Made by a program: the position numbers and the translations under genes. The notes beneath the pieces were generated by a model. That model was not told where the DNA came from and made no database searches. It worked only from the letters and a program-made list of their open reading frames with translations. 64,000 bases of DNA from Eledone cirrhosa (taxonomy: Eukaryota): the NCBI GenBank assembly GCA_964016885.1, contig OZ024740.1, positions 416,764,001 to 416,828,000 on the forward strand, written 5' to 3'. The stretch's first letter is position 1. Each line of letters opens with the position of its first letter. This document shows positions 20,290 to 49,920 of this stretch, in pieces.

Positions 20290-21625
20290 CATCATCATCA
20301 CCGTTTTATGTCAATTTCTCCATGCTAGAATGGGTATTTATATACTGGGTGCTACCACCCTACTGTGAATTGCTGTAGTACTTGTTTGTTACATTTTCAT
20401 TTGCCTGATACTGCCAACAAGGATTGTGTGGTCTTTAATACCATGATAACTGGAGACAAGACATAAGTGTACAGGTACAACCTATCCCGCATCCCACATT
20501 GCAAAGATCCCAAAAGGACATCAGGTGTAGAGCAACTCAAGGTGATGCTGACTATTTTTTTTACTAGTAAGGTGTTGTACATCTCAATTAAGGACAAACA
20601 ATTGCAAAGGAGTATTATGAAGAAGCCCTCTGATTTCTTCATGGTGCAATTCAGTGCAAGAGACCGGATCCGTGAGCCTTACAAAACTGGCAACTACATC
20701 ATGACAATACTCTGGCTCATTTGTCGTCATTCTTAACAAAGAAAAGCATTTTGCTCATTCTCCAGGCTCCCTAAACTTCTGACCATTGGTTGTTTCCTAA
20801 ACAGTAGAAATATCACAGGGCTGAGGGATGTGAAAACACAAGAGACCTACTTCAAAATGAACAATTGAACCCCATTAAATATGTATTTTTTCTCCACCCT
20901 AACATTGGATAGTGGAGACGTGTGGCCTAGTGGCAAGGGTGTTGGACTTCTGATCATAATGTTGTGGGTTTGATTCCTGGACTGGGTTATGTATTGTGTT
21001 ATTCAGCAAAACACTTCATTTCACCTTGCTCCAGTACACTCAGCTGTAAATGGGTCCCAACAATAGCTGGAGGTTTAACCCTGCAATGGACTGGTGTCCT
21101 GTCCAGAAGGAAGTCTTGTACTCTCAGTCGCTTCACGCCATGAAACCAGGATAAGCACCGGCCTAATGAGTCCTCTGGCTTAAGACAGACTTTAGACCTG
21201 TTTTAGGTCTAAGATTGGATACTTTTTTAAAAGACCTTGTAGTATGTAGTAATTTATTTTAAGAATTATAGAATATGAGAGTGAATTTAAATAACCATCA
21301 AAAGAGAGATATGTCAATAATCTTTACCTACCGGACACGATTCACATGTTGGTCCAGCATAACTTCCAGTGCATGTGCACTGGTTGTTTGTACAGATTCC
21401 TTTTTCGTTACATATAAGCTGCAGAAAGAATTAAAATGCAATCTTGTTAATATCTTTGTAGTTATAAATGTTAAATTCTTTTGGCACAATTAAACAGAGT
21501 TTGGAGGTTTACACAACAATTATATGCATTTTATATTGTTTTTGTTCTTTAGTTTGATTTAACCATGACATGAAGACCTTTCTAGAGCACCACCATCAAA
21601 CATTTGATACACACACACACACGCG

Positions 21626-21671
<46 letters not shown>

Positions 21672-24300: not shown

Positions 24301-24381
<81 letters not shown>

Positions 24382-29283: not shown

Positions 29284-29344
<61 letters not shown>

Positions 29345-32300
29345 ATTAAATATTCGTGTACAGATATTTTTGCATACACAATAACAAAATATAAACAAAC
29401 GTATTTATTTCACGAGGCTCGATAAGGATAAACATATATCAAATATATAAGAACCCTAGAGCAAATCCCGAGCAACGCCAGGCCATTCTGCTAGTTAGAT
29501 CTAAATATTATTTGTATAAATGAAGTTCTACAAAATATAGTTTTTAGTCTGTATAGTACTGAGCTATTAGTAGAGTAATATGACTGAAATAGTTGTATTT
29601 TAGTCTATATTTATAATATATATATATATATATCATCATCACCGTTTAACGTCCATTTTCCATGCTAGCATGGGTTAGAAGAGTTGTCCCAAGTTAAATC
29701 AGATAAATGTGTCTTGCTCATACAGGATTGGTTTTGGCTTGATTTCTACAGCTGGATGCCCTTCCTACACCAACCCCGTTTATAGTGTGGGCTGGGTGCA
29801 TTTTCTCATGTCACCAAAACGACCACTTAACACTGTAAGGTGGTCATGCTGGTGACATGAGAAAAAGCAGTCCACACTGTAATGTGGTTGGTGTTAGGAA
29901 GGGCATCTAGCTGTAGAAACCAAACCAAAATACAGATCTGTATGAGCAAGACATGGTCTCTGGACCTAACTTGTCTCATAATATAACAACACTCTAAGCC
30001 ATGATAGCATGGAAAAATGGACGTTAAACAGTGATAATGATGATAATGATGATACACCTACAATAAACATATATCTTAAAATAATTAAATTCTTTAAAAT
30101 AATCACCTTAGAATATTTATGTACTTCAAAATAATCATAATTATGATAATCATCATCATCATCTAACGGCCATTTTTCCATGCTAGCATGGTTTAGATGA
30201 GATGACCCATTATGAGACAAGCTAGATCAAATGACCATGTCTTATTCATACAGGACTGTTTCTGGTTTGGTTTCTATAGCTGGATGTCCTTCATAACCCA
30301 ACCACATTTACAGCATGAACTAGATGCGTTTTTATGTGGCCCCAAAACGGCCACTTTACAGTGTGGACTGGGTTCTTTTTGTTGTATCACTAGCACAAAT
30401 GGCTGGCTTGTTGGACAGGGTGCTATTTGTTATGTCACCATCCCGACCACTAACTTGTTCTATGTACATGTAACAGAGAAGAAGGAGTAGAAAGGAGGAG
30501 GAAGAGGAGGAGGAGGAGGAGGAGGAGGAGAAGAAGAAGAAGAAGAAGAAGAAGAAGAAGAAGAAGAAGAAGAAGAAGAAGAATTTTCAAACACACAGAA
30601 GAAGAACACGAACAGATGAAATAAACTGAACATAGAATAGTATTTACCTTTGGAGACATTTTAGTGTGAGGTTTTTTTCTGATTGCTGTCAAAAATATAA
30701 AAATACAGTGGGAGACAAATTAACAAGAATTTGGTAGGAGGAAAAGGTGATGAATTTCAAAAATAACGTCAGAGTTGGCACTTTGTTCCAGGTTTTATCA
30801 CATTAAGTAGATAAAATATAAAGGTACGTGGCTTAGTGGCTAGAGAGGTGGATTCACAATCGTGAGGTTGCAAGTACGATTCTTGTACCAGGTAGTTCAT
30901 TATGACCTTGAGCAAGACACTTTTTTTTATTTCATGTTCCTCTTTCTTTCAGGAGTTGACCAGTTGATAGTATTAGCAATTGGAAAGACCAATGGAAACA
31001 TTGTTTCCTTTGTCTGATCTGACAAGTTCCACCTCACTCAGTAAGCAAATGAGTTCTGGGATCTTGTGAATTCCGATCATTCTATACCTAAGATGCTTTA
31101 CTGTGATATAAAATGAACCTCAACAAGGCAGTCAATTAGCAGAGTTACTAGAGTGTCAAATAAGATACATTGCAATATTTGTTTCATTTTCTCTGTACCC
31201 TGCTGAAGTCACCTTTGCAGTTTGTTATTTTGTGGTAGTTAAAATACCAGCTCAGTGCTGGCCCAACCCTCTCTCACTTCAGTAAGCAAATAAGGTTTGT
31301 GATCCAGCAAAACTCAACACTCTCATTTGAACAACATATCTCAGCTAAGCCTGTCATTTATAGAGACTGCACCAGTCATTCAACCTCATGGGTTCCCTCC
31401 CATGGGTGTGATGCTCTCATGTCAATTTAGCAGAGGAGAGCAGAAGTGAGGATATGAAAGGTCTTAACAGTAAAAACAGTTTCAAAACATTAAATAATAA
31501 ATAAAACAATGAACAGTTGTGAAAATAGTGAAGAAATTACCAAACTGAATTCACATTTTTTGCCAAAATAGTTTTGTTGGCATACGCATCGATTATTTTG
31601 GCAGCGACCATGACCACTGCAGACCTATCAAAGATAAATTAGATATCAGAAAATAGATAGCTAAATAAATATATTATGATATGAAGCAAAAAAGCAATTA
31701 AAATAGAAGTTTTACTTTAAATTTTGAACAGGAACCAATTATGTAGTGCTGAAGAAGACCTGACCTGCATCATACAATGTGACATGACCAACCCCCATGC
31801 CCCAACTATCACTTCCCTACAGTTATCCTCAACATCACTTCTTCAACCCCACCACATATGCCCCTCTCCTCCGATTCCTAGCAGCTACCTTCCACTCCAT
31901 CCTGTAAAGCAGTTGATGATGGGAAGGGTATTCAGCCATAGGGGCTAAACAAAAGGTTGGGAGGACCTTTCAGTCATGTCAAGGACATGACAACATCCCT
32001 AGTGTTGGTGATCTACATGATAAATGCACCCAGTACATACTGTGAAGTAGTTGGTGATAGGAAGGTCATCCAGGTGTAGAAATCTTGCCAAACAAAAGGG
32101 GTCAAGAGAACCCTCAGTTGTGTCAAAGATAACAACCTCTCCTGTACACTCTGTGGAGCATCGACTATACATAAAGTGAGACACAGATCCCTGGCCTGTC
32201 TGGGAGATCAGTGGCTCCACTTCAGTACTGACTTGCTCTATGTAGACCCATCCAACCTTTGTTAGTTGGGAAAGTGGACATTAAAATGACAATGATGATG

Positions 32301-33413
32301 AAAGACAAAATGAAGTTGCTTACATACATGTGTGTGCGTCTGTATGTGTGATTAAGAATGTAAGAGGGAAAGCCAGTACAATGTGAATAGGAAATATAAT
32401 GGTGGAACTAGAGGACAGTAAAGTAAGAATGATAAAACAAAACAATAGTTTTTACTCTATACTTTATATTTCGAGGCGAAAGCCTCTTTATCAAAAGAAG
32501 AAGAATTGGAGTTTCTTGTTACAAGTTCTTTATTTTTTTGAGATTGAGATAGTGGAAGCTGGTCAGTGGAAAGGTGACATGTTCAGACCAGTCACAATAG
32601 CCAGGAGTGGTTCCATGTAACTAAAATCTGTTGTTAGGTGAACATGTAAGACTTGATGTTACAGGGAGGCTGGGAGATTAACTATCAAGAGGTTCAAAGC
32701 ATCAGTAAAGACTGCTGAGTAGATGAGTTGTCTTCATTATAGTTTAAAAAATAATTTGATGTGATATGGAGTTTTATAAAGAGATAGCCTAGCATCATGT
32801 TTAGATTATAAAGGGTTTAATGATCAGAGGTGGATAGCAAATACCAAAGTAGAGTTTAAATATTCATTTATTATGGCTAAGTAGTAAGACTTATTACTCT
32901 GGAGTTTCACCTACACAGTTTTCCTTTGTGGCTAGGCTTTTCCTGTACATTGTATCAGCCCTTCTTGTAGGTTTCCTCAGTAGCTGCTGTTTTCTTATGT
33001 GTATGTGTTTCTTTTTTTAAATGTCCCATTAGCATTTAAAATGTCCCACTGATAGTATTTTCAGGATGGTGTTATGGTAGGTATAGTGACAAATTAATAT
33101 TAGGTTGTCAAAGGCAGGCTGATACATTCTCAACAGAATGGGCATTTATGTAAAAACACTGAAAGGTACTGTCTCATGGTGCCATCTAGGTTAATAGACC
33201 AATGACTGCAATGTAGATATAATCAGAAAAGAGCAATGTAAACAAGCCAGCTGGTAGGAAGGATGGGCAGAGTTGGTAAATGTGCATTACTGTCACCCAT
33301 TGCAGAAGGGTGACATGGTGGGTGAAAGAGTGTAGATAGATGAGAGAGAGTTATGGAAAGAAGCAACAACAATAGGATGATAAAAGAGGGAGTAATGTAA
33401 GTGAAAGAGGAAA

Positions 33414-33452
<39 letters not shown>

Positions 33453-36400
33453 TCGTCGTCATTTTAATGGTTCGCTTTCCCTGCTAGCAAGGGTTGGATG
33501 AGTATCATCATCATCATCATCATCACCGTTTTACGTCCGTTCTTCCACACTAGCATGGGTTAGATGGGTTGTCCTGTTGTGGGCAGTGTCCAGTCAGCTG
33601 ACCTTATCTTGCTCATACGGGAACTGATTCTGGCTTGATTTCTACAGCTGGATGCCCTTCCTAAAACCAACCTCATTTACAGTGAGTACTTTTTTTCCTG
33701 TGGCACCTACACGTCCACTTTACAGTGTGGGCTGGGTGATTTTTTGCCGTGGCACCACCACAACCACTTTGCAGTGGGAGGGGATGGGGGCATATTGTCT
33801 ATATGCTTCAGCTTCGGCTTGTACCCGTGGGGAGTCGGGTCTTCTGTATTACTGCGTGACGCCAGAGGTCACGGTCGTGTGTCATCGCCTTTGAGCCTAC
33901 ATAGACCAAATCAGCACTGAAGCAGTGGCTACTGATCTCCAAGACAAGCCATATATATATATATATATAAGTTTGTTAATGAAGCTATTGGAAGAGGGGT
34001 CCAAATAGCCCATATAATGATGTAGGTGTAGGTGAAACACCAGAGTAACAAGGCTCACTACTTAGCTATAATAAATGAATATTTAAACTCTACTTTGGTA
34101 TTGAGTACTGTTTCTCACATCTGTCAATGACACATGGATATATATATATATATATATAGACCCAACAGAGGGACCAACTATTGAAATTGACAGCTCTAGG
34201 ATTGGAAACATAATTATGAAGGAAAGCAACTAGACTATCAGGGATAAACACTTAGATGCTGAAAGTATCCAGCAAAGTCGAATACATGTTAGTCACTGGG
34301 ATAGTTAATTAGTTAGTATAGGGGGGTGTCATACCAAATGACTGGCCAAGCAATATCATCCTCAGCTGCTATGGAAGTAAAGGAGATATTCTACAAAGAA
34401 ACAACTACAGAGGCATCAAACTTATGGACCAAATTATAAAAATAACAGAAAGAGATATACCATGCTCTCAGGTCTTGAATAATCGTACCCTCCCCTCCTT
34501 CCTGCTTATTAATTTTTCAGATGTTTTCCATCCATCCTGCTTTTATTTCAACTTCTTAGTAAATTTTGCTAATCTATCTCCAACAAAATTTTATTGTAAG
34601 TGATTCATATTGATACAGCAGCTGAAGAATCTAATTATAATTTTATTTTACATTAAAAAATCATTATATATGACAAAAAAAAAGAACATTACAAGAAATC
34701 CCATATTTCAAGCGTACACTATAGAATTACCCCCCCCCCCCCCACACACACACACCTATTATTTGGGACCCGAGAGTAACTGATTAGGATGAGAATTAGC
34801 TTAGATGTGATGCAGTTTAGGATTGTGCTAGAATGTGGTACCACTGATGAGCTCTTCCTACAAAGGTAAAAAAGTTCAAGACACTATTTTTTTTATGCTG
34901 TCAACAAATGATTTATTTCTCAGGGTTAACGGCTTATAGTATACAAATGTACAAAGCGTGATGTTGTGTGGTAGTGAAACATAAGCATTGAATGTTGGGG
35001 TTGTGTGATGGCTGGAAAGAAACGTAGTGAGTACAGTTCCCTGGATGTGTAACATTAGTACCCAAATATACTAAGAAAAAAACAAACAAAAAAAACCCAA
35101 AACAAACTAAGAATCAGATGAACTGTAAAGAGAAAATGGCCCTGGTTCAGACATATGATGCATCTAGAAGATGGCAGCGGGGAAACAAAGTCCTGAGTGA
35201 TTCAAGAGGAAAGAACCAGCAGAAGAGAGACCAAGAAAGACATGAGGAAAAGTGAAGATCTGAAAGTGCTGAACCTTCCAAAGAATGTGACAACAAACCA
35301 CAAGTAGTGAGACATTGTGTGGTAGAGAAGTCATGTCAAAACCATGTCTAGAAAACTGATGTAAAACTGACAATGACGATGACAATGATGATAAAGATAT
35401 ATTTTTTAATGAATGAATATTGCAAAGAAGCAATTTATTTGTGACGTCCATTTTGAGTTTGTTTTAAATAGCATGAACTGACAAGTCAACACTCATATCA
35501 TCATCATCACCATTTAACATCCATTTTCTATGTTAGCTTGGCTTAGACGAATTGTACTATTGTGAGGCAAGTCAGATTAGATGACCATGCCTTGCACATT
35601 TAGAATTATTTCTGGTTTGGTTTCTACAGCTGGATGCCCTTCCTAATGTCAACCACATTTACAGTGTGGGTTGGGTGCTTTTTATTGTGGTACCAACATG
35701 ACCTCTTTACAGTGTGGACTGGGTGCTTTTTGTCGTGACAACAACATGACCACTTTACAGTGTGGACTGGGTGCTTTTTGTCATGACAACATGACCACTT
35801 AACAGTGTGGGTTGGGCGCTTTTTGTCATGACAACCACATGACTACTTTACATTGTTGATTGGCTATTTTTGTTGTGGTACCAACACAACTTCTTTACAG
35901 TGTCGACTGGGCACTTTTTATCATATATATTGAAAAATTTGATTAACTCTTTCAGAACCAACATACTCGAAACCATATCTAGTTTTATGATTCAAAATTA
36001 CTTGTTTTTAAAGAATCTATATTTAAATTGAAATATTCTATCATAATTTTATGTAATAAACATTTGTTGTGTTCCAATCAGCAACTTCATAACAAAAACG
36101 TTAATGATTTTATTAATAATTCTTCTAAATTCTTGATTATTTTCCAAGAGACTTTTTTTTAAATGCAGACCGAGTATTTCATTAGAAATGTGGCAATGAA
36201 AGTGTTAATAAAAGCAAATAACTTACACCTCTTGGTGAGATACAGTTTTGAGACTGTAGACTTAATTCACAGGCTCTACCTTCATAATTAGCAAAGCACT
36301 GGCACTGGCCACATTGGCAGACTCCTTGTCTTCTACCTAGAATAGAGAATTATTACAATCTTTGAAGAGATTGAAAAATAAAACAGCAGTTATAAACATA

Positions 36401-37484
36401 GGTTTCATTTTGTGGGGTACAAGATCAGCTTTTGTGACTAAATGTGATATAGATGGTATCACATTATTTACCTCTACAAATGATATTATAGATAATATCC
36501 CATAATTTACATCTACAAATGATATTACAGATAATATCACATTATTTACCCCTAAAAATATTATTGATATTATCACATTATTTACCTCTACGAATGATAA
36601 TATCACATTATTTATGTCTACAAATGATATTATAGATGTCATCACATTATTTACGTCTACAAATGATATTACAGATAATATCACATCATTTAACTCTACA
36701 AATGATATTAGAGATATCACATCATGTAACTCTTCAAATATTATTGATATCATCACATTGTTTACCTCTAAAAATGATAATATCACATTATTTACATTTA
36801 CAAATGATATTATAGATATCATCACATTATTTACGCCTACAAATGATATCACAGATAATATCACATTATTTACCCCTGCAAATGATATTATAGATCTCAT
36901 CACATCATTTAACTCTACAAATGATATTAGAGATAATATCACATCATTTAACTCTACAAATGATATTAGAGATAATATCACATCATGTAACTCTACAAAT
37001 GATATTATAGATCTCATCACATCATTTAACTCTACAAATGATATTAGAGATAATATCATATCATGTAACTCTACAAATGATATTAGAGATAATATCACAT
37101 TATGAAAACTCTACAAATGATATTAGAGATAATATCACATTATTTACCTCCACAAATCCTTCCATTTGAAGTAGGACAGCTGGAATCATCACACTCACAG
37201 TACTTGCCACTATATACATGAAGTGTTCCCTAAAATTAAATGAAAATACAATTTCACATCAGTTAAGGGTTTTATAAATAGTATGCAAAATCATTTTCTT
37301 GGATTTTAATAATTTATGACTTATATAGAATATCTCCATCTTAATATATAATACATATTTTTGGTTGGTAACTTGTTCTATGTACATGTAACAGAGGAGG
37401 AGAAAGAAGAAGAAGAAGAAGAAGAAGAAGAAGAAGAAGAAGAAGAAGAAGAAGAAGAAGAAGAAGAAGAAGAAGAAGAAGAAG

Positions 37485-37515
<31 letters not shown>

Positions 37516-40500
37516 CTAATCAGAGAATACTGAAACCAAGGAATTATTAAATGACTAAACCCCCTATCATTTTCGATGGGTACTATGATAGTTTTATAAA
37601 TAGAAATTTATCTAAAGAATCAAATTAAAATAGTCTTCATTCTTTAGTCTTCCAGTTCAAGAATTGATTTGGCAAATCTATGATTAAAGCATTTAAGCCA
37701 TGATCATTCCATCTTTTTAACATTTTTCATAGTTTGTCTAAGTCTCCATTATCACATGTATCATTCTATATTTTAATTGAAAACTTAGTGGTGTGATTTG
37801 AGGAAAAATTGGCTACTATTTCTAACTTGAAATTGATAAAATATCTTAAGAATGCAATATATAAGAGAAATAGTCAGAAGCCTTTAATTTTGATATTTTT
37901 CAGCTGGTCTTACCAGTTTGACACAATACAGAAAGGATGGATGCAAATTAAATAGTAGAAAAAATAGTTTTATTATGTCAACTATATTTTACAAACAGAA
38001 GTTATACAATGATGGAAATATTAAAAAAACAGATAAAAATAAAATTAAGTAATGAAAACCATGGAGAAAAGGACAAAGAAGAGCAGATCTGGCTGCATAG
38101 GAAAGTAGAGGAAAGGACTATAAATGCCATAAATATGAATAAAAGGAGGGAAAGAGCAAGGATTAGTCAGCAATGGGAGAGAGAGAGAGGAGGAAAGAGA
38201 GAGGGCGACAGGCTCTATGACTAGGTCGGGACTGTGTTTCAGCTGCACCCCACAATAGTAGAATGAAAGCAAAGATTTTGTGTCTTTCTAAAATTACTTT
38301 ATAAAACTAGGGAAGCTGAAATTATATTTAGTGTTTTATTTTTTCATTGGTTTTTACGTACATTTTTCCCTGCCTAAGTTGGACGGAGGCTGGAGCTTGT
38401 CCAGGTGTGATGTGGGATGAAGCAGTTGAGAGTACAAGACTGTCCTTTGACTGGGCATCAATCTGTTGCTGGTCCTCATTTTCAGCTGAGTAGACTGGAG
38501 GAACATGAAATGCCTTGCTGAAGGACACAACATGCCACAATACTTGGTGATCGAACCCACAACCTTTTGATCATGAGATAAACACCCTAACCATTAGGCT
38601 GTACATGTTCATTGAAATTTAGAGTTTCTTGGTATTGAGCTTTTCATTGCCATCTTCTCTTAAGTCATCCCTTTTTCGAAGGCAAAGTATTCATTTGGCT
38701 TTTTTTAATGGCTAGAATATATGTGGCTTGCCACACTGTAGCTTGCCACATCTGCATACTTATTGGAGTGATCAACAAGATTCCAGACCACATTCAATTA
38801 CCAAGTGAGGTGGAGCTCATCAAATCAGACAGAGGAAAAAATGTTTTCATTGGTCTTTCCATTTGCTAGTACTATCTACCAGTCACAACTCCTGGCAGAA
38901 GGAGCAATGTGAAATAAAGTGTCTTGCTCAAGGACAAAATGCATCGCCCTGTCTGGGAATCGAACTCACAACCTCACAATTGTGAATCCAATCCTCTAAC
39001 CATTAAGTCATGCACCTTCACAATATTTCTAATAAAATGCATTGTATTTGAATTAATTACTGAAGAATTTGGAGGAATTTACTAAAATTATTTCAATTAT
39101 CACAACAGTATTTCTTACATAACATAAAATTATGTTGGAAGATTTTAATTTTATATCCGACACATTTAAAATGGTTGGCTTCAATCTACTGAAGCAGAGG
39201 CAGTAAGCAGCTGATAGATATCAAACTGTTAATTCTGTATTTAAAAAAAAATCTATTTAGAACATATTTAGAATGACTTTTTGGAGTCAGATAATATGTG
39301 GTATACTAAAGCAAGACCTTGTTACAGGGATGTCATCATCATCATCATCATACGTCCGCTTTTCCCTGCTTGCATCTCTCCATTCATCACGGTCCTTCGT
39401 CATCTCCACCATGAGCTTCAGCAATCTGAGGTCTGTTCTCACCACCTCTGCTCATGTTTTTCGTGGTCTTCCTCTACTGCGTCTTCCTTCCACTGGGATG
39501 TTTTGGCACTTCTTTACCCAGCAGGCTTCCTCCATGTGCATCACATGTCCATACCATCTCAGTCTTCTCTCCTGCACACCTCAACCTATACCTTCGCTAT
39601 CCCAATGATACATCATCATCATCTTTTAACGTCTATCTTCCACGCTAGCATGGGTTAGAGGGGAATTGGTCCCACTTGAGGCAAGATTGGTCAGGTGACC
39701 GTGTCTCACTCGTATAGGACTGTCTGGCAGGTTTTCTACAGCTGGATGCCCTTCCTAACACCAACCACATTTACAGTGTGGACTGGGAGTTTTTTATCGT
39801 GTTACCTACACGGCCACATTACAGCGTGAACTGTGTATTTTTTTGTCGTGACACCTACACGACCTCATTTGTTTAGACTGGATGTTGTGGTACTAACATA
39901 ACTTTACAGAGAAAGAGTGGTGTTGGTGGGAGTGGGAGGGTGGAGTAGGGGCAGTGGGTTGAGGTGTATATTTGGTTAAGAGATAGATGTAGTGATATCA
40001 GCATCCTATACCATTGCTATCCCAATGATACATGTAGTGATATCAGCAACCTATACCATCGCTATCCCAATGATACATGTATTGATATCAGCATCCTATA
40101 CCATTGCTATCCCAATGATACATGTAGTGATATCAGCATCCTATACCATCGCTATCCCAATGATACATGTATTGATATCAGCATCCTATACCATCGCTAT
40201 CCCAATGATACATGTATTGATATCAGCATCCTATACCATCGCTACCTTAATGATACATGTATTGATATCAGCATCCTATACCATCGCTATCCCAATGATA
40301 CATGTATTGATATCAGCAACCTATACCATCGCTATCCCAATGATACATGTAGTGATATCAGCAACCTATACCATTGCTATCCCAATGATACATGTAGTGA
40401 TATCAGCATCCTATACCATCGCTATCCCAATGATACATGTATTGATATCAGCATCCTATACCATTGCTATCCCAATGATACATGTATTGATATCAGCATC

Positions 40501-43500
40501 CTATACCATCGCTATCCCAATGATACATGTATTGATATCAGCAACCTATACCATCGCTACCTTAATGATACATGTATTGATATCAGCATCCTATACCATC
40601 GCTATCCCAATGATACATGTATTGATATCAGCATCCTATACCATCGCTATCCCAATGATACATGTATTGATATCAGCATCCTATACCATCGCTACCTTAA
40701 TGATACATGTATTGATATCAGCATCCTATACCATTGCTATCCCAATGATACATGTAGTGATATCAGCAACCTATACCATCGCTATCCCAATGATACATGT
40801 ATTGATATCAGCATCCTATACCATCGCTACCTTAATGATACATGTATTGATATCAGCATCCTATACCATCGCTATCCCAATGATACATGTATTGATATCA
40901 GCATCCTATACCATTGCTATCCCAATGATACATGTAGTGATATCAGCAACCTATACCATCGCTATCCCAATGATACATGTATTGATATCAGCATCCTATA
41001 CCATCGCTACCTTAATGATACATGTCTGAGCAATGTGAGAAAAAGCTCTCTGGCATGCAGAACCTAAGTTACAAACCCCTTTGTCATCCCAGTGGATAGA
41101 ACGGAGAAAGCTTCAGCCTGGAGTATAGTGAGGGAGACATATTGAAATAATCATACCTGTTAGTAGGTAAGGACATAGTATATGAACAAAGAATACCAGA
41201 AGTGTCAACTGCTACAGATTCAATGGTGAACCTATTGAAATGTAGCCAATACTTCGACCATCTAAACCATGCTAGCATGGAAAGTGGACATGAAATGATG
41301 ATGTTGATGACTTCAACAGTTTACAATCTTCAGGTTGTTGGGCAACAAAACTTTCCTGACATTTGTACATTATTCTATGTATTATCAAATCCCGCCGAGG
41401 TTAACTTTGCCTTTCATCCTTACGGGGTTGATAAAATAAAGTACCAGTAATACACTGGAATAATTGCTGGCCTTGTGCCAAAAGTAGAAACAATTATTCT
41501 ATGTATTATATGGTGGATTGGCAGTATCAGTAGAGGGTCGGATGCCATGTTTTGTAGCAAAGAGTTATGGCCCTTTATGGTCTGAGTTCAAATCCCGCTG
41601 AGGTTAACTTTGCCTTTCATCCTTACGGGGTTGATAAAATAAAGTACCAGTATTACACTGGGATAATTTCTGGCCTTGTGCCAAAAGTAGAAACAATTAT
41701 TCTATATACTATGGAACGATTGTACTAAGGGCAGTGGATTGGCAGTATCGGTAGAGAGTCAGATGCCATGCTTTGCAGGATAGAGTCACGGCCCTTTATG
41801 ATCTGAGTTTAAATCCTGCTGAGGTTAATTTTGCCTTTCGTCCTTTCGGGGTTGATAAAATAAAGCACCAGTATGCACTAGGGTAATTGCTGGCTTTGTG
41901 CCAAAAGTAGAAGCAATCATTCTATGTACTATACAGCACCTTTAATGAGTTGTAGTGCACCCGAGCTCTGTACACAATAATTTTCATTATTATTTAAACC
42001 TGTGTTTGTCTTGAAATACACCAGGTTGCCACTGGAGAAAGTGTCACTACAGGCATATTCCAGATGAGGAGCTTACCACTGAGGAATGGGAAGATTGAGA
42101 TGTTTGAAAATAATATAGAATGGTCTCCTTTGAAATTCCTGGGGGTTGCAGGTCTGCTTTATTGAAGCTGATCTGGGGTTAAACAACAACAACAAAAAGA
42201 AAACAATAAATAATGTCCCTGTTTGAAATATAACAAAATAATTGTACTTACAGGTTTGGTTCTACAATGACAATAACCTTGGACACAGTTACCCCTGTTT
42301 GAGCAGATAGATGATGAACCACTGGAGTAATAAAATTACAAAATAGAGAGCAATTAATATTGTTACATATTTTGCAAGAAAATAAATTACAATATGTTAT
42401 TTTAACAAAATTGCCTCAGTAACTAAATCATAATAGGACCCCTTCTGTCACAAATGACCATGGGTGTTATCTCAGTAACTAAGTCACAGTAGCACCCCTT
42501 CTGTCACAAATGACCATGGGTGTTATCTCAGTAACTAGGTCACAGTAGGACCCCCTTCTGTCACAAATGACCATGGGTGTTATCTCAGTAACTAGGTCAC
42601 AGTAGGACCCCTTCTGTCACAAATGACCATAGGTGTTATCTCAGTAACTAGGTCACAGTAGGACCCCCTTCTGTCACCGATAACCATGGGTTTTGTCTCA
42701 GTAACTAATTTACAGTAGGCCCCCTTCTGTCACAAATGACCATGGGTTTTGCACAAGTCTGGGCAAGTGTTTTTGTGGAAGACCACCATTCACCCATGCA
42801 TACCTGTCCTTGGTGGTGGTGGTGGTGGTGGAAGAAATGAAGAAGAGAGCAAAGAGGAGGAATTTAACTGAACTTTCTGTTACTCTGTTATAAAGCACTA
42901 AACCATATATTTAAATAACTATGCACTCTTGAGTTGTGTCAAAAACATGACAACCTTTCTCATGCTGGTGCCAGGATTAAATGCATTTGGTAAAGCATGG
43001 GAGCAGATGTAAGCCAGATGTAGATCCCTGGCCCAATTGAGAGGTCACTACCTCCTCTTAAGTAGTAAAATGGTTTGTGAAGACCCACCCAACTCTTGCT
43101 AACAGAAAGACAAACATCAAAAAATGATGATGATGATGATGATGATAATACAATTTCCTGGAATAAATAAAAATATAGCAGGAATATATTTAACCCTTAA
43201 CCCTTTAGCATTTAAATCGGCCATATCCGGCCAAAACTCTCTCACCTCTTTCTGTTCAAACCGGCTGTAACTGGCCACACATACCTACATTAGGGTATTG
43301 TTCTCAAAATAAATGACATCAAAATCTCATAGATTCGATATTACGTGAGATAATTATGTAAGATAAAGCCTTTACCGTGAAAATACAATAGTAAATATAA
43401 AGTAATAATCATCATCATCATCATCATCGTTTAACGTCTATGTTCCACGCTTGCATGGGTTTGGACGGGAGTTTTCCCACTTCAGGCAAGAGTGGTTGTC

Positions 43501-46500
43501 TTGCTCGCATAGGACTGTCTGGCGGGTTTTCTACAGCTGGATGCCCTTCCTAACACCAACCACATTTACAGTGTGGGACTGGGAGGTTTTTACCGTGTTG
43601 CCTACACGGCCACATTACAGCGTGGACTGTGTGTTTTTTGTCGTGACACCTACACGATCTCATTTGTTTCGGCCTGGATGTTGTGGCACCAACATAACTT
43701 TACATTGAAAGGGGCGGTGTGGGTGGGGTGGGGGTAGTGGGACGGGGGTGTATTTTGTTAGAGATGCCTACTGACTGTAGTAGGTTTTACTTTGTATTTA
43801 GGTAAGGCGGGTCTTCTCTATTACTGAGTGCCGCCAAAGATCTCGGTCCAGTGACATTGTCTTGGAGAGGTGTAAGTGTATGAGGTCGGAGTTTATGAGG
43901 TCGTTCCAGGTTTTTCTGGGTCTGCCTACTCCGTGGCTACCGTCTATCTTTATTGCCCTGCACTTTTTTATACAGCTGTCGTCTTTCATGCGCATCACGT
44001 GACCATACCAACGTAGCCTTCTCTCGAGTAAACAACATCTGATCCCTCTTATTTCTAATTTTTCCCTTAGTTCGTTTATGCTTTGCCGTTCGCGTATATT
44101 ACTATTACACATCCAGCGGAGCATGCAAGCTTCGTTCCTTTCTAGTCTGCGTATATCCCCTGCACACAATGCCCAGGTCTCACTGCCATGCAACATTGCT
44201 GTTCGTATGCAGGCATCATACAGCCTGCCTTTCATTTTTAGGGAGAACCCTTTAGCGGCTAATAGTCGTATAAGCTCTCTGAACTTTTTCCATCCAGTTC
44301 TGACTCTAGCTACTGTACTTTCAGAGCACCCTCCCCCACTGCTGATTTTGTCACCCAGGTAACGGAAGCTGTCCACTATTTCTATAGAACCCTCTGCGCA
44401 ATTGAAAGAGCTAGTATTTTGTGGCAACTGGCTGCTACTTATTGCACCAGAGCACCAGCCACATGTAAAATCTATGTTCTTAGTTAGCTTACCTGTGATC
44501 CATACATCTTTTATGCACCCATACTTTGCATTTGGGACATAAAATGGAGTTTCTACCTACGTCTTTCCTACACACTGAGCATGGCCATTTCACCGAAGGG
44601 ACCGGCGCCTTATTTTCTTTCCTACAAACTAGAACTTTAGTCTTAGCCAGGTTAATTTTAAGGCCTTTTGATTCTAGGCCGTGCTTCCATGTTTGGTAAT
44701 TTCTTCTCTAGCTCGGCCATTGATTCAGCTATGAGCGTTAGATCATCTGCGTATAGGAGTTCCCATGGGCAGCCGGTCTTGAACTCCACTGTTATAGCCT
44801 GAAGGGCAATAATAAATAGTAGGGGGCTAAGAACGGAGCCCTGATGAACACCAACTTTTACGCTAAACTCTTCACTATATTCGTTGTTAATTCTAACCTT
44901 GCTGATTGTTTCTTTATACATGGCTTGTATAGCTCTCACAAGCCATTCGTCAACACCTAATTTTCTAAGAGCCCACCAGATAATGGAACGGGGGACTCTG
45001 TCAAAGGCTTTCTCCAAGTCGACGAAAGCTAAGTATAGGGGTTTACTTTTAGCTAGGTACTTCTCCTGTAGTTGTCGTACAATGAAAAGAGCGTCTGTGG
45101 TACTTTTGCCTGACACAAACCCGAACTGCATTTTATCTAGATCAATTCTCTCTCTGATTAGTTGCGCTATTACTTTTTCCGTGACCTTCATGACCTGGTC
45201 GATTAATTTAATGCCTCTATAGTTACTCCTATCTAGGGCATCTCCTTTACCCTTGTAGCAGTTAATGATGATGCTGCTACGCCAGTCCTTCGGAACAACC
45301 CCATTCTGTATGACTTGGTTTACTATCCGGGTGACCATGGTGTGTCCCACTGTTCCAGAGGCTTTCAGCATCTCAGCAACTATTTCCGAAGGCCCAGCCG
45401 CCTTACCCGTCTTCATATCTTTGATTTCCTTACTTATTATACTACCTTCGACTAACACTGCTGGTCCCTCTATTGGGTCGATGTGGGGGAGACTGTCTTT
45501 CTCCCATTTATTCTCCTCATTTAGTAGCCTTTCGTAGTGACACTTCCAAGCTACCTTCTTATCAGAGTCAGTGATGGCAAGTACACCATCATCATTAAGT
45601 ACACACTTCTCCCCGACAATATCACGGTTTTCCTTGCCTAGCAATCCTGAACACCTCACGTTTTTGGTCCTCGCGTTGTAGAACATGCTTGAACTTTCTT
45701 TCCTCTGCTTCCCTTCTTGCGAAGTACACTTGTCTCCTAGCTTCCTTCCTGGTCACTTGATAGTCTTCTCTACTTCCCCCATCCCGCCATACTTTCCAAG
45801 CCTGCTTTTTGGCCTTAATTGACTCCTCCACCTTACTGTTCCACCACCATGTTACTCTCCTCCTGCCTACAGGCCTGCTCCAGCCACAGACTTCGTCTGC
45901 CGCCATCAGCAGGTTTGCTTTCAGGAATTCCCACTGTTCCTCTATATTGTACGACTCTAATTGCTCTTCCTTACTGTCGAAAGCATCAAGTAATATGCTT
46001 TTAAATTTATTTCTGGCTGTGGGGTCCTTTAGCTTCCATATTTTTCTCCTGAGGATAGTCCTCTTCTGCTGTCGAGTACGTCTCGTCCTGACTATGAGGT
46101 CGCTAATTATCAGTCTATGTTGGGAGGTGCATTCTTCATGGTCGAGGGATTTAGTGTTTACAACAGACACTCTATCACGTCTTCTGGTAATGATATAATC
46201 TATCTGACTGGCGTGTTCCCCTGATCTGTAGGTGATCATGTGATTGTCTCGTATTTTGAAGTTAGTGTTACAGATAGTTAGGTTATTTGCATCACAGAAT
46301 TCCATGATTCTGGAGCCTTCCTCGTTTCTAGTACCAAACCCATAGCCTCCGTGGATTCCGTCATAGCTGTCACAATGTTGACCAACATGGCCATTTAGGT
46401 CGCCAGCAATAATTATATAGTCACTGTCGGTTATTTGGGAGGTAGCGAGCATCAGCGTCTCATAGAAGGGTTAACCATTTACATTGCTCTATATTTACTA

Positions 46501-48090
46501 CTATATTTTCACAGTAAAGGCTTTGCCTCACATAATATCGAATATAAGAGATTTTGATATTATTTATTTTGAGAATAATACTTTAACATAAGTATGAGCA
46601 ACTGGTTACAGCCAGTTTGAACAGAAAGAGGTGAGAGAGTTTTGGCCGGATATAGCCGATTTAAATGCTAAAGGGTTAATGGAACACACTGAATATGTAC
46701 TGCCAGTGTAAGGTTATATACTTTTGAAGCCCAAGGTATTTTTAAAAAAAACATGGTGTCCTCTCAATCTCTCCCACCTCCCCCTCGTGGGTTCTATCAG
46801 AAGCAACCGTTTCCAATTTGAGACTTGTGGGTCTGAGAAAAGTACCAAATTGGTAACTGTCACTAATAAAAGCACCAAATCAACATTTTTTCCTGAAAAT
46901 GAAATAGAGGTGAGGGAGAAGGTGACTAATATAATTTTCAAGAAAAAACATATTTTTCCAGTCAATTCCTATTCAAACTTTCCACAATTTAAATGGCTCT
47001 ATGGTTAAGAAGTTCACTTTGCAACTGTATGCTTTCATACTCATTTCAAAAGCTTTATAAACAGGTTTCTATACAGAAACTGTATAGAAACCTGTTGTGG
47101 TGGGGTAGATTTAAACTAATCCTTTGTTTAATACCACTTTGGGTTCCTTTAGCAAAGCCCACTCTGTTACATGGATCTAAGGATAACTTTCTCCCTTTCT
47201 CCTCATAATTTTGGAGGCCCTACTTCCACTATCTAAACTATTAAACCAGACAAACAGAGAAATAGACAGATGGATGGATTGACAGACAGACAGATAGATT
47301 GACAGACAGACAAATGGATTGATAGACAGACAGATAGATTGACAGACAGACAAATGGATTGACAGACAGACAGATAAATAGATTGAGAGAGACAAATGGA
47401 TTGACAGACAGAAAAATGGATTGACAGGCAGACAAATAGATTGACAGACAGACAAATGGATTGACAGACAAATAAGTAGATTGACAGACAGAAAAATGGA
47501 TTGACAGATAGACAAATAGATTGACAGATAAATAGATTGACAGGCAGACAAATAGATTGACAGACAGAAAAGTGGATTGACAGACAGACAAATGGATTGA
47601 CAGACAGACAAATGGATTGACAGACAGACAAATAGATTGACAGGCAGACAAATAGTTTGACAGACAGACAATTGGATTAACAGACAGACAAATGGATTGA
47701 CAGACAGACAAACAGATTGACAGGCAGACACATAGATTGACAGAAAGATAATTGGATTGACAGACAGACAAATGGATTGACAAACAGACAAATGGATTGA
47801 CAGACAGACAAATGGATTGACAAGCAGACAAATAGATTGACAGGCAAACAAATAGATTAAATGACAAATGGATTGACAGGTAGACAAATAGATTGAGAGA
47901 CAGATAAATAGATTGACAGGCAGACAAATAGAGAGATAGATGGACTGACAGGCAGACAATCTATAAAAACAAAACTCGTCATGAATCAATTTAATTAAAT
48001 TTTTATGTTTTGTTTAAGTTATAATAATAATTTTGCTGTTAGATTTTCTTACCTCTGAATACAGGGGGGATTCCAACTACTTCTGGGTTC
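12889..48090 (-). CDS. Spliced integrin beta-like gene, 3' part: 13 exons encoding six I-EGF domains and a beta-tail domain, no transmembrane segment; 5' exons outside the window
   Basis: Exons 48053-48090, 42252-42321, 37148-37229, 36227-36336, 31541-31624, 30648-30685, 25368-25434, 24645-24726, 23413-23522, 21332-21418, 19229-19349, 13211-13339 and 12889-12902. All have AG acceptors, the first 12 have GT donors, and phases match. Translation: EPRSSWNPPCIQSGSSSICSNRGNCVQGYCHCRTKPGTLHVYSGKYCECDDSSCPTSNGRICGGRRQGVCQCGQCQCFANYEGRACELSLQSQNCISPRGVCSGHGRCQNNRCVCQQNYFGKKCEFSLQSEKNLTLKCLQSNTSSICSNRGNCVLGVCQCHSKNSNQFYSGQFCECDDYSCDYYNGKLCGGVKRGMCDCGECHCKSGFEGSSCSVTKATDRCLASNGLICNEKGICTNNQCTCTGSYAGPTCESCPTCVNNCEKMKQCVLCKVFGTGTLTFEQCIKCDPIHLVDSLDNIYTEMTRHVCLFIDDFDDCRVRFVLEQDARNKMKTYVIRRKECEI*. 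The motifs CSxRGxC, G(K/Q)(Y/F)CECDD and CExCPTC and the beta-tail Cys spacing are characteristic of integrin beta. Confidence 0.93.
13211..13339 (-). CDS. Integrin beta-like exon, second half of beta-tail
   Basis: ctgtatttcag|...|gtaata; 129 nt; (D)NIYTEMTRHVCLFIDDFDDCRVRFVLEQDARNKMKTYVIRRK, resembling the integrin beta-tail C...DDCxxRF motif. Confidence 0.92.
13330..13515. repeat. Three tandem 72-78-bp units, each containing a copy of the exon splice acceptor
   Basis: atattatctg(a/t)aataca recurs near 13333, 13411 and 13483; the minus-strand CAG acceptors are at 13340-13342, 13418-13420 and 13490-13492. Confidence 0.8.
13670..13840 (-). mobile_element. tRNA-derived SINE, Meta-domain-type family, internally deleted
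   Basis: tactggtactttattttatcgacc...ggatttgaactcaga; same family as the copies at 22720-23370 and 41385-41920. Confidence 0.7.
14062..14909 (+). mobile_element. 5'-truncated RTE-clade LINE (ORF C-terminus, long 3' UTR, (GAT)n tail)
   Basis: ORF 14078-14515 KGRLYDACIRTVMLHGSETW...GRPRKTW is very similar to the 43798-44427 copy and ends in a (GAT)n tail. Confidence 0.93.
15817..15978 (-). mobile_element. Short RTE 3'-end fragment
   Basis: (CAT)n followed by caccgttttacgtccgttcttccacgctagcatggg, the reverse complement of the RTE 3' terminus. Confidence 0.8.
16411..18042 (+). mobile_element. 5'-truncated RTE-clade LINE: RT, PHD-like zinc finger and C-terminus, with one premature stop
   Basis: NYRGIKL, FVDLEKAFD, GVHQGSVLSP and LYADD motifs; CSIC...CTQC..WVHKRC..CSRC; TAG at 17497-17499 where the 44.3-kb paralog reads RTGWKKF; very short 3' UTR and (GAT)n tail. 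Confidence 0.96.
19229..19349 (-). CDS. Integrin beta-like exon, first half of beta-tail
   Basis: ttttatttcag|...|gtaagt; 121 nt; TCVNNCEKMKQCVLCKVFGTGTLTFEQCIKCDPIHLVDSL. Confidence 0.93.
20137..20263. repeat. Near-perfect hairpin with arms of about 58 bp, derived from a dispersed repeat
   Basis: ttaaaataacagattaaagtttaagcaaagaatcgctgctttcacccttaacggga, then gtttcagaaga, then the reverse complement. The same sequence occurs at 28980-29290 and 51010-51070. Confidence 0.85.
20913..21190 (+). mobile_element. tRNA-derived SINE (CORE-like family)
   Basis: A-box-like tggcctagtgg, B-box-like gggtttgattcc and central cagcaaaacacttcatttcaccttgctccagtacactcagctgtaaatggg. Related copies lie near 19680-19830, 30825-30920, 38470-38610, 38900-39020 and 48880-49020. 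Confidence 0.75.
21332..21418 (-). CDS. Integrin beta-like exon, I-EGF4-type (module 2)
   Basis: ttctttctgcag|...|gtaggt; 87 nt; LICNEKGICTNNQCTCTGSYAGPTCESCP. Confidence 0.93.
22038..22543 (-). mobile_element. Non-autonomous Helitron (about 506 bp) nested in a TTAA-bounded MITE (about 22002-22722)
   Basis: On the minus strand it starts TCTATATAC and ends ccgggtattactgggtacctcagCTAG. It sits between A and T with no TSD, and removing it restores the MITE sequence tttaccattatattttcacagtaaagg. Confidence 0.85.
22720..23370 (-). mobile_element. Three tandem Meta-domain-type tRNA SINE copies
   Basis: Three repeats of gaccctgtaaggatgaaaggcaaag...ggatttgaactc. Confidence 0.75.
23413..23522 (-). 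CDS. Integrin beta-like exon, I-EGF3/4 (module 2)
   Basis: ttctgtttgtag|...|gttagt; 110 nt; (G)VKRGMCDCGECHCKSGFEGSSCSVTKATDRCLASNG. Confidence 0.93.
24645..24726 (-). CDS. Integrin beta-like exon, I-EGF2/3 (module 2)
   Basis: tatattttcag|...|gtaaac; 82 nt; NSNQFYSGQFCECDDYSCDYYNGKLCG. Confidence 0.94.
25368..25434 (-). CDS. Integrin beta-like exon, I-EGF2 (module 2)
   Basis: catcacacacag|...|gtaaat; 67 nt; (S)NTSSICSNRGNCVLGVCQCHSK. Confidence 0.92.
25485..26027. repeat. 57/69-bp minisatellite amplified from the left part of the TTAA-bounded MITE
   Basis: Starts ttaacccttc, then about eight units of tacattactctatata..attgtattttcatggtaaaggctttacctcacataa. Confidence 0.85.
26588..29493 (+). 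mobile_element. Composite non-autonomous Helitron region
   Basis: 5' TCTATATATATAAAAC plus (GTCT)n directly follows another Helitron 3' end (cccaagcaacgccgggctttgctgCTAG, ending 26587). It contains a 5' tandem duplication of about 240 bp and a nested 3'-end motif near 28800-28830, and ends ccgagcaacgccaggccattctgCTAG-t. Confidence 0.7.
30648..30685 (-). CDS. Integrin beta-like 38-nt exon (start of module 2)
   Basis: tttttgacag|...|gtaaat; QSEKNLTLKCLQ(S); same length and phases as the 48053-48090 exon. Confidence 0.88.
31541..31624 (-). CDS. Integrin beta-like exon, I-EGF4-type (module 1)
   Basis: tatctttgatag|...|gtaatt; 84 nt; VCSGHGRCQNNRCVCQQNYFGKKCEFSL. Confidence 0.93.
34160..35390 (+). 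mobile_element. Old, decayed RTE LINE remnant interrupted by a MITE (about 34465-34778)
   Basis: Degenerate matches such as aactacagaggcatcaaacttatggacc (NYRGIKLMD), atgcagtttagg and agaccaagaaagacatg. MITE ends ctctcaggtcttgaataat / attatttgggacccgagag. Confidence 0.7.
36227..36336 (-). CDS. Integrin beta-like exon, I-EGF3/4 (module 1)
   Basis: attctctattctag|...|gtaagt; 110 nt; (G)RRQGVCQCGQCQCFANYEGRACELSLQSQNCISPRG. Confidence 0.93.
36455..37157. repeat. About 39-bp minisatellite derived from the exon 3' end and splice donor
   Basis: Unit ctctacaaatgatattagagataatatcacattatttac matches the junction tatttac|ctccacaaat at 37141-37157. Confidence 0.88.
37148..37229 (-). CDS. Integrin beta-like exon, I-EGF2/3 (module 1)
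   Basis: tttaattttag|...|gtaaat; 82 nt; GTLHVYSGKYCECDDSSCPTSNGRICG. Confidence 0.94.
39332..39590 (-). mobile_element. RTE 3' fragment (short-UTR subfamily)
   Basis: Reverse complement resembles 17750-18040; (CAT)n tail at 39333-39350. Confidence 0.85.
39609..39985 (-). mobile_element. RTE 3' UTR fragment (long-UTR subfamily)
   Basis: Similar to 43409-43760; (CAT)n tail. Confidence 0.8.
39988..41026. repeat. 39-bp minisatellite, about 26 copies
   Basis: Unit tgatacatgtattgatatcagcatcctataccatcgctatcccaa-like; one partial copy is stranded at 39586-39612 on the far side of the RTE fragment. Confidence 0.95.
41385..41920 (+). mobile_element. Three tandem Meta-domain-type tRNA SINE copies
   Basis: A-box-like tggcagtatcgg, B-box gagttcaaatcc and conserved gcctttcatccttacggggttgataaaataaagtaccag. 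Confidence 0.8.
42252..42321 (-). CDS. Integrin beta-like exon, I-EGF2 (module 1)
   Basis: ttattactccag|...|gtaagt; 70 nt; (S)GSSSICSNRGNCVQGYCHCRTKP. Confidence 0.93.
42415..42750. repeat. 56-57-bp minisatellite, about 6 copies
   Basis: ctcagtaactaggtcacagtaggacccccttctgtcacaaatgaccatgggtgttat. Confidence 0.9.
43198..43408 (-). mobile_element. TTAA-bounded (piggyBac-type) MITE, about 210 bp
   Basis: TTAA-CCCTTTAGCATTTAAA terminus; inverted relative to the 46471-46679 copy; other copies at 22002-22722 and 59971-60260. Confidence 0.75.
43409..46467 (-). mobile_element. RTE-clade LINE, 5'-truncated within the endonuclease domain, frameshifted
   Basis: EN motifs (IIAGDLNGHVG, SQIDYI, SQHRL) at 45622-46452; RT (NYRGIKL, DLEKAFD, LYADD) at 44658-45686; C-terminus at 43798-44427; 3' UTR of about 390 bp and a (GAT)n tail. 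Confidence 0.96.
46471..46679 (+). mobile_element. TTAA-bounded (piggyBac-type) MITE
   Basis: ttaaccatttacattgctct...tttaaatgctaaagggTTAA. Confidence 0.75.
47245..47960. repeat. About 20-bp degenerate minisatellite built on (GACA)n
   Basis: Unit gacagacagacaaatggatt. Confidence 0.9.
48053..48090 (-). CDS. Integrin beta-like 38-nt exon (start of module 1; most 5' exon found)
   Basis: ctttgctttttag|...|gtaaga; EPRSSWNPPCIQ(S). Confidence 0.85.
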
Positions 48091-49260: not shown

Positions 49261-49471
49261 TAGGGTGGCCCAAAAGTCACACAGGGGTCGCAACTGTTTA
49301 TAATATTTTTATTTTATAATATTTAGTAATGTAGAGGTGTGACAATGATTGATGAGTGCAAAATGATTTCCAGTATGTCCTTTAAGTTGTATCAAAATTT
49401 CATACATCAATCTGTACAATTCAGGAAGTTAATAAAAACTGAAACCCCTGTGTGACTTTTGGGCCACCCTG
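49261..49471. mobile_element. Tc1/mariner-type MITE
   Basis: TIR agggtggcccaaaagtcacacagggg / cccctgtgtgacttttgggccaccctg, flanked by TA. Confidence 0.85.
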
Positions 49472-49920
49472 TATACACACACACACATATATATGTCCAA
49501 CCACTTCCTGGTTGACACCCATATGAGCAAGACACGGTCACCCGACCCAGCTTGCATCTAAATGGGACAAACTTGTATAACCCATGCTAGCGTGAACAAT
49601 AGACGTTAATCGATGATGATGATATATATATACACACACACACACACACATATATATGTCAAACCCATTCCTGGTTGACACCTATATATGTATAGTATAT
49701 TTGATAATATATTGTATGTTTAATTACAAACATTTTGAAGACCATTCACAATGAATTTTAAAGTAGTGGCTATGTCACTTATTCTCTGCAAAAACAAAGG
49801 GGAATAATTAACAGTCCTGTTTCTCGCTAGTTAGCGGTTATGAAGACTAATTACCACTTTGCTTCAGCCGAGAATTATAGAAGCTGGATTCTTATAGAAT
49901 TCCAATAATGTTTAAGATGT

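Follow-up and report, generated by a model that had tools for sequence, protein, structure and literature searches.

An Integrin-Beta Derivative without a betaI Domain, Carrying 16 I-EGF Domains and a Complete Beta-Tail, in the Octopod Eledone cirrhosa

RESULTS

Gene structure at the locus

The window analyzed here is a 64,000-nt stretch of the 3.0-Gb Eledone cirrhosa genome (positions 416764001 to 416828000); coordinates follow its numbering and are extended past its ends, such that the genome position equals 416764000 plus the value given. It carries the 3′ part of a minus-strand gene for an integrin-beta derivative composed of PSI, hybrid, 16 I-EGF, and beta-tail domains. The complete gene has 37 exons, all bounded by GT-AG introns, spans 214,784 nt (∼215 kb), and encodes a protein of 977 amino acids (aa) with 132 cysteines and a single stop. 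The domain order is signal peptide, PSI, hybrid without betaI, 16 I-EGF domains (EGF1 followed by five copies of EGF2-3-4), complete beta-tail, and stop, and integrin domains account for all 977 aa. The gene appears to be single-copy in this genome.

Two five-exon modules lie within the window. Module 4 (I-EGF11-13; span 31541..48090, minus strand) consists of exons at 48090-48053, 42321-42252, 37229-37148, 36336-36227, and 31624-31541 (38, 70, 82, 110, and 84 nt), and module 5 (I-EGF14-16; span 21332..30685, minus strand) of exons at 30685-30648, 25434-25368, 24726-24645, 23522-23413, and 21418-21332 (38, 67, 82, 110, and 87 nt). A first-pass annotation of the window had read these as old but intact copies of a repeated I-EGF2-3-4 unit, and the modules proved real: all ten exons were found where it had placed them, with the same sizes and with AG/GT ends, the phases run 0-2-0-1-0-0 and the lengths sum to 384 nt in both modules, the paralogous motifs it quoted occur in both, and their joined frame is open into the beta-tail exon at 19349-19229. 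The ten exons are not chance frames, since they share 58 to 78% identity with their counterparts in the O. vulgaris protein. The copies are indeed well diverged, with 43% identity in protein and 55% in DNA (NG86 dN of 0.52 and a saturated dS of 2.75), and module 5 is the nearest of the modules to canonical I-EGF2-4. The absence of intron similarity also noted at that stage holds for modules 4 and 5, whose flanking introns are 50 to 62% alike in global alignment against a background of 45 to 67% for other module pairs, but it does not extend to modules 2 and 3, which share a tract that includes intron sequence (see below).

Extension of the gene model beyond position 64000 bore out the suggestions of an elongated leg and of further modules upstream: where at least 6 I-EGF domains had been counted, the whole gene has 16, and the window pair is the last two of five modules. 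Starting from the N terminus, the minus-strand exons outside the window are a signal-peptide exon (227672-227618), judged from hydropathy alone; two PSI exons (225994-225912 and 221498-221394), with a PSI exon match to PF17205 at E 3.5e-5; six exons of a hybrid domain without betaI (219457-219394, 219128-219061, 215859-215792, 214544-214490, 213649-213597, and 213099-213006); the I-EGF1 exon (211457-211324); module 1 (I-EGF2-4; 208689-208620, 207034-206953, 205840-205731, and 108482-108396); module 2 (I-EGF5-7; 106921-106884, 104930-104861, 100469-100388, 97971-97862, and 95062-94976); and module 3 (I-EGF8-10; 93467-93430, 91789-91720, 89213-89132, 83743-83634, and 76774-76688). The PSI and hybrid exons that had been proposed for checking upstream are thus both present. 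In each of the five modules, the EGF2/3 exon is interrupted by an additional phase-0 intron.

Downstream of module 5, the beta-tail is kept, as had been claimed, and is a complete domain on the minus strand. Its first exon (19229..19349, 121 nt) is the most conserved part of the protein and matches PF07965 at E 1.7e-5, which as half a domain is below the curated cut-off; the second (13211..13339, 129 nt, phase 1-1) matches the same family at E 0.022 and has 77% identity to O. vulgaris; and the last coding exon (12889..12902) holds the final beta-tail cysteine and then the stop, the protein ending in ECEI. The tail cysteines align with those of canonical subunits, AATAAA occurs 18 nt into the last exon, and orthologs terminate at the same place.

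A 97,248-nt intron inside module 1 is filled by an uninterrupted 37-bp satellite (∼108960-205570), for which the period and 91% matches were measured on one 10-kb piece; away from its ends the intron has no unique islands. A 59-bp satellite of ∼94 kb starts ∼400 nt past the stop codon (window 1-12485, continuing to about -81700). The intron between the two longer tail exons contains a reverse-transcriptase frame with a PHD finger at 16243-17499 on the plus strand (PF00078 E 4e-30, PF00628 E 3e-6), a LINE-type element that sits in a 25-bp tandem array. Further intronic retroelement pieces are endonuclease and reverse-transcriptase frames at 43800-46470 (minus strand) and a reverse-transcriptase frame at 50274-50906 (plus strand), the latter in the 28,597-nt intron between modules 3 and 4, whose 3′ part fills 48091..64000 of the window. 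A piece at 63328-63888 (minus strand) has a weak GIY-YIG match (E 0.014) and is presumably Penelope-like, and frames at 53718-56794 had no match in the Pfam scan.

Orthologs and their database labels

The Eledone protein has 76% identity to records from O. vulgaris and O. sinensis and 64% to one from Argonauta. Matches to the EGF-exon profile include a 976-aa O. vulgaris protein (CAI9716324.1) labeled "integrin beta pat-3," a 983-aa Argonauta protein (GAB1599227.1), and a Logan protein of 983 aa that carries no name. An Acanthosepion pharaonis fragment falls in the cluster of the last, here called the cuttlefish cluster, in which 7 of 10 members are full-length (983 aa, within 2 residues of the representative) with 16 I-EGF domains. 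These seven open reading frames sit on contigs of ≤3,972 nt, which are probably spliced transcripts, since the 2.95-kb frame fills most of the contig. All five species-level records have 16 I-EGF domains, and the architecture is common to octopuses, Argonauta, and cuttlefish. The O. bimaculoides RefSeq annotation splits the gene into two records (P0122 and P0123) at the module 1/2 boundary. A Pfam scan of three orthologs found only EGF-type families and DUF7949; the "tenascin-X" label on the O. sinensis ortholog (XP_029637747.1) is a misannotation, given that neither fibronectin III nor fibrinogen domains were found in that scan. Used by itself as a homolog query, the second tail exon gave no candidates. 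We also considered RGD as a functional motif and rejected it, for it occurs in 2 of 5 records (O. vulgaris and O. sinensis), with KGD in one, and is not conserved.

The first-pass annotation had allowed that modules 4 and 5 might be mutually exclusive or belong to a protein already described. Because the full-length orthologs contain all five modules, they are used in series, and although skipping a module would keep the frame, 7 of 7 full-length members of the cuttlefish cluster hold 16 EGFs; minor skipped isoforms are possible. Orthologs do exist in databases, but under misleading names, and in the open-access literature searched we found no description of a betaI-less or elongated beta gene from cephalopods or other mollusks. 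A mention as "tenascin-X" or "integrin beta-like" in some transcriptome or proteome table is possible; the gene is real and conserved, and undescribed within the literature searched.

Absence of the head and the membrane anchor

No PF00362 match was found on the contig that holds the window; the 21 matches in the genome fall in five other loci (on C2, C13, C19 twice, and C26). Exon profiles built from these paralogs and run over 564 kb on both strands recovered PSI, two hybrid exons, EGF1, and the first tail exon of the gene, and none of the six betaI exon profiles gave a match better than E 0.11 in this region. The same approach missed one genuine hybrid exon as well as the second tail exon, so the exon-profile search is not exhaustive by itself. 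At the site where betaI would be inserted, the 68-nt exon at 219128-219061 corresponds to the hybrid strand with which the canonical first betaI exon begins; it is a remnant of that exon and ends at a phase-0 donor, whereas the canonical counterpart ends in phase 1; the next hybrid exon begins in phase 0 in both this gene and the canonical paralog. The 3.2-kb intron that follows the remnant holds repeat-like frames only. In alignment, the betaI junction has 58 residues in all four cephalopod rows compared to 277 to 414 in 37 of 37 canonical subunits.

Structural comparison agrees with this arrangement. The best sequence matches in the PDB are beta2 fragments (2p26, 5e6w, and 5e6v; 224 to 317 residues), which align in one piece across the junction. 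For the N-terminal record of O. bimaculoides (379 aa), an AlphaFold model built from 105 sequences had a pLDDT of 91 and superimposed on 5e6v with a TM score of 0.77 by target length (Z 17.5, rmsd 2.8, 214 of 224 residues); the full-length model, built from 13 sequences, had a pLDDT of 38.5. A betaI domain with its MIDAS is absent from the encoded protein, and the betaI (MIDAS DxSxS) exons that the first-pass annotation had proposed to look for upstream were not found.

The same is true of the anchor. PF08725 has 8 matches in the genome, with none on the contig of the window, and transmembrane and cytoplasmic profiles gave nothing credible at window positions 12.4 to 19.2 kb or in 168 kb past the downstream satellite, although the same transmembrane profile did recover the exon of the C13 paralog. 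The transmembrane candidates that turned up within 250 kb downstream proved to be repeats or low-complexity frames and were discarded. All five aligned proteins end within 6 residues of the last tail cysteine, and in none of them does a hydrophobic 19-mer exceed 1.18 after residue 30; neither a transmembrane helix nor an NPxY cytoplasmic tail was found. With betaI/MIDAS, transmembrane helix, and NPxY all lacking, the protein is not the long-stalk integrin that had been offered as one reading of the locus, and since it has no anchor, it should be secreted. The other reading, of an ITGBL1-like product, fits the outcome, with the qualification that this gene derives from a full beta gene and retains PSI, hybrid, and tail.

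A normal long-stalk receptor might be mistaken for such a gene if exons were missing or hidden past the satellites, or if two genes had been joined. The two ∼95-kb satellite arrays inside and just past the gene leave room for such errors, and the split O. bimaculoides annotation would fit them. However, seven 983-aa open reading frames on short contigs carry the whole architecture in one piece; the O. vulgaris, O. sinensis, and Argonauta records agree with it, are gapless at the betaI junction, and share the same end; the donor of the remnant exon is in phase 0, not in phase 1 as in the canonical paralog; and cysteine pairs have been lost together across module joins. We consider incomplete annotation highly improbable.

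Two observations concern other loci. The C13 paralog (41.60-41.62 Mb) has a degenerate motif at the MIDAS position and a transmembrane exon but gives no PF08725 match, and it is possibly a divergent or tail-less subunit. The hybrid-EGF1 region of the query also has a weak match (E 0.165) at G000:C2:303373124-303373372 on the minus strand, away from known beta genes.

Cysteine patterns and module history

Modules 1 to 5 contain 21, 20, 20, 20, and 21 cysteines, respectively, in all four species examined, compared to 22 to 24 in four canonical paralogs. The fifth cysteine is missing from the EGF4-type domains and from the EGF2-type domains of modules 2 to 5, and these same domains also lack the first cysteine, which the preceding exon would supply. 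In I-EGF domains the first and fifth cysteines are disulfide partners; each loss therefore involves both members of a pair that spans an exon join, which is what a single chain should show. The first cysteine of the tail is retained by the last module alone.

In a tree of modules, those of octopods group largely by position, and octopod module 1 joins cuttlefish module 1 (100/98). The middle modules are composite in octopods: their first three exons score nearer to module 5 in 27 of 27 cases, and of 18 cases for the last two exons, 17 score nearer to module 1, three of them with values near zero. For module 4, this means that its first three exons resemble module 5 and its last two module 1; the idea that modules 4 and 5 are tandem duplicates is thus right in that both are real but wrong in that module 4 is chimeric, and they are not a simple pair. 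In cuttlefish, 13 of 15 middle-module comparisons score nearer to module 5, and a tree of the last two exons places octopod modules 1 to 4 with cuttlefish module 1, leaving cuttlefish modules 2 to 4 outside (99/97). A joint constraint of position orthology was rejected in fast searches (p-AU of 0.0002 for the whole module and 0.0008 and 0.005 for the halves), as was a grouping of the middle modules into a single clade (p 0.019); for individual middle modules, orthology by position was not rejected (p 0.06 to 0.25).

These comparisons, which sample one cuttlefish lineage, are most simply read as the product of a seven-EGF (two-module) ancestor that expanded separately in octopods and cuttlefish, with the breakpoint apparently inside EGF3 in the former and at the module boundary in the latter. 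The three middle modules appear to have been filled by different duplications in the two groups, yet both have 16 EGFs. A single ancestral expansion followed by gene conversion among modules explains the pattern as well, and one conversion-like tract is visible: the third exons of modules 2 and 3 (L004:6389-6469 and L003:5133-5213) are 96% identical and lie in a 211-nt tract with 90% identity, which suggests recent conversion-like exchange. The third exon of module 2 also has G in place of an otherwise constant E between two cysteines.

Relatives without betaI in other animals

A search with the head of the cuttlefish-cluster protein against 1.84 billion representatives returned 276 hits, of which 150 were listed; among the 149 new matches listed, a pattern test flagged at least 16 with PSI-hybrid-EGF and no betaI, and the alignment contributed two more, Mytilus and a second chiton record. 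Named molluscan examples are Solemya KAL5018522.1, Liolophura XP_064617978.1, Haliotis XP_046562643.1, and Mytilus XP_071130316.1; outside mollusks, they come from several nematodes ("putative integrin beta-like protein"), Tachypleus, a moth, and two teleosts. These relatives have a junction of 49 to 59 residues at the betaI site and no MIDAS, and outside coleoids they have at most about six EGFs. The molluscan ones mostly end after the beta-tail and have a basic hybrid domain. Some have unnamed Logan members on 1.6- to 2.2-kb contigs, and some of the records may be exon-skipping or faulty gene models; one (P0201) clusters with a 763-aa subunit. Several nematode and horseshoe crab proteins (P0141, P0147, P0158, P0164, P0167, P0177, and P0199) have a hydrophobic, GPI-signal-like end and may represent a headless leg held at the cell surface. 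Two bivalve cases, read by eye, are further leg-only designs: Mercenaria XP_045172698.2 (P0050, 771 aa) has three EGF blocks and two beta-tails, and Mytilus P0152/P0283 lacks betaI and has two beta-tails.

A 57-row tree (20 headless and 37 canonical, with P0201, P0243, and near-copies left out) united the nine molluscan headless rows with 99/96 support, the bootstrap being not fully settled. Under a mixture model with 29 rows the clade received 93/98, hybrid columns being included in both trees. In a tree from which these columns were dropped, support fell to 55/86 and Mytilus moved outside. The octopod gene and the betaI-less relatives in chitons, abalone, and bivalves may form one clade. None of the proteins listed is named as a vertebrate ITGBL1, and the tree sets the octopod gene among molluscan proteins derived from beta subunits. 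A single origin of all headless rows was rejected (p 4e-34), while a clade of mollusks and nematodes was not (p 0.32); by these phylogenies, betaI-less forms have arisen several times.

Charge, conservation, and possible function

The hybrid domain is cationic in the molluscan headless proteins, with a net charge between +16 and +20 in four cephalopods and between +6 and +22 in five records from elsewhere among mollusks, compared to a canonical median of -1 (range, -8 to +8; n = 37) and -5 to +4 in non-molluscan headless proteins. Two of the molluscan values (+6 and +7) fall inside the canonical range, and the Mann-Whitney p of 0.0004, taken with one record per lineage, overstates independence because the shift sits in one related group. 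Conservation is also uneven: among four species, non-cysteine positions are invariant at 49% of PSI, 43% of the hybrid, and 56% of the N-terminal half of the tail, compared to 18 to 32% of the modules, so that the two ends are more conserved than the rod; conservation is poor (11%) in the C-terminal half of the tail.

Because the ends are conserved, the rod is not, and the hybrid is strongly cationic, we favor a tether, in which a cationic head would hold heparan sulfate or other polyanions, the tail would hold a protein partner, and the rod would act as a spacer; we put the chance of this at about even. A rather unlikely alternative is a secreted antagonist like ITGBL1, whose leg modules would hold integrin heterodimers inactive, with five I-EGF2-4 repeats raising avidity. 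The I-EGF2-4 part of the beta leg faces the alpha leg, and it is this part that is repeated; betaI-less forms have also arisen several times, an all-headless clade being rejected as above. ITGBL1 is described as secreted and inhibitory to integrin activity (PMC8921176), and a comparable role is raised, as speculation, for truncated zebrafish beta1 (PMC1538996). Against an antagonist, no other large part of the protein is less conserved than the rod, and one cysteine pair is gone from most domains of the EGF2 and EGF4 types, a pattern more in keeping with a spacer than with a binding site present in many copies; the cationic hybrid is left unexplained.

A soluble decoy or carrier for growth-factor-like ligands of PSI and hybrid, or a hemolymph factor with its cationic end on microbial surfaces, is less probable again and on balance unlikely. 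In favor are the strong conservation of PSI and hybrid and the cationic charge of the hybrid. Angiopoietin-2 binding is mapped to the PSI domain of beta1 in PMC13262729, which suggests that a PSI surface can bind ligand by itself. A decoy, however, would not need a 16-EGF rod of conserved length, and the gene appears to be single-copy. Many molluscan immune families, in contrast, have expanded.

Under the favored tether reading, the protein would be secreted, as suggested by its signal-peptide-like N terminus and missing anchor, and would form a monomeric rod with all 132 cysteines paired. The betaI domain is needed for the usual ligand site of integrins and for pairing with the alpha propeller, and without it both alpha-propeller pairing and the binding of RGD ligands would be unlikely. 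The N-terminal end would instead bind polyanions such as heparan sulfate through the cationic hybrid, the N-terminal half of the beta-tail would bind a protein partner, and the rod, at 2 to 2.5 nm per EGF, would be a fixed-length spacer of roughly 35 to 40 nm. As for its history, betaI and the anchor may have been lost early in mollusks, the two-module, seven-EGF form would be older than the octopod-cuttlefish split, and unequal crossing-over in introns could have added three modules with breakpoints that differ between the two lineages.

A broader and more tentative reading, which we hold to be possible though well short of even probability, is that an old molluscan family of secreted headless legs repurposed the hybrid as a polyanion-binding head and that coleoids made of it a molecular ruler, with 16 I-EGF domains reached independently, through different module duplications, in octopods and cuttlefish. 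If true, repeated betaI loss in mollusks, nematodes, arthropods, and fish would point to a general function of the leg outside the adhesion receptor.

DISCUSSION

Comparison with known systems

The octopod protein shares with canonical integrin beta subunits the PSI and hybrid domains, the I-EGF1-4 order, the beta-tail, the exon phases of the leg, and the fold. It differs in having no betaI/MIDAS, transmembrane helix, or NPxY, in having 16 rather than 4 I-EGF domains, in the extra phase-0 intron of the EGF2/3 exon, and in its strongly basic hybrid. Three PDB beta2 fragments (5e6v, 2p26, and 5e6w) likewise run PSI-hybrid-I-EGF in one chain without betaI, but they are laboratory constructs, which show that the fold is viable and not that it is functional. 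The zebrafish genes beta1tr-1/2/3 offer a natural comparison; Mould et al. (2006; PMC1538996) describe them as distinct genes whose beta chains lack an anchor and may be secreted, as is proposed there, with PSI, hybrid, and EGF-1 as the best conserved parts. As presented there, these chains differ from the octopod protein in that they keep betaI (A), have four EGFs, and stop four residues past EGF-4 without a beta-tail. Stalk expansion has been described in breviate and amoebozoan beta subunits, where the vWA head is kept (bioRxiv 10.1101/2020.04.29.069435).

Tenascins, too, are secreted and contain many EGF-like repeats in succession, and they fill the list of EGF-profile matches. The octopod repeats are of the integrin type and are accompanied by PSI, hybrid, and beta-tail, with no fibronectin III or fibrinogen. 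The protein belongs to none of integrin beta, ITGBL1, and tenascin, and such a gene is easily overlooked. An oyster survey, by its methods as given in PMC7390872, was baited with PF00362 and required a transmembrane helix, so headless genes are invisible to surveys of this kind. Headless beta-leg genes would thus be missed by PF00362-based surveys like that one and are mislabeled in databases.

ITGBL1/TIED is not known to contain PSI, hybrid, or tail. Its ten I-EGF domains are reportedly the subject of a paper by Berg et al. in 1999, as its title has it. The resemblance lies in a headless and anchorless tandem I-EGF stalk with a signal peptide, that of the octopod protein having been judged by hydropathy. 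Where ITGBL1/TIED has ten I-EGF domains only, the octopod protein has 16 together with PSI, hybrid, and a complete beta-tail, and its rod is built from a three-domain, five-exon module. PMC8921176 describes ITGBL1, with its ten I-EGF domains, as a secreted integrin inhibitor, and by analogy it is ITGBL1 that the octopod protein appears to resemble most, in being a free leg. With its chimeric repeats and its cysteines lost in pairs, the gene is a clean case of module shuffling, and a natural, conserved protein without head and anchor permits a direct test of what the surfaces of PSI, hybrid, I-EGF, and beta-tail do alone. Integrin legs are usually viewed as levers for the head; the octopod gene provides an invertebrate counterpart to ITGBL1.
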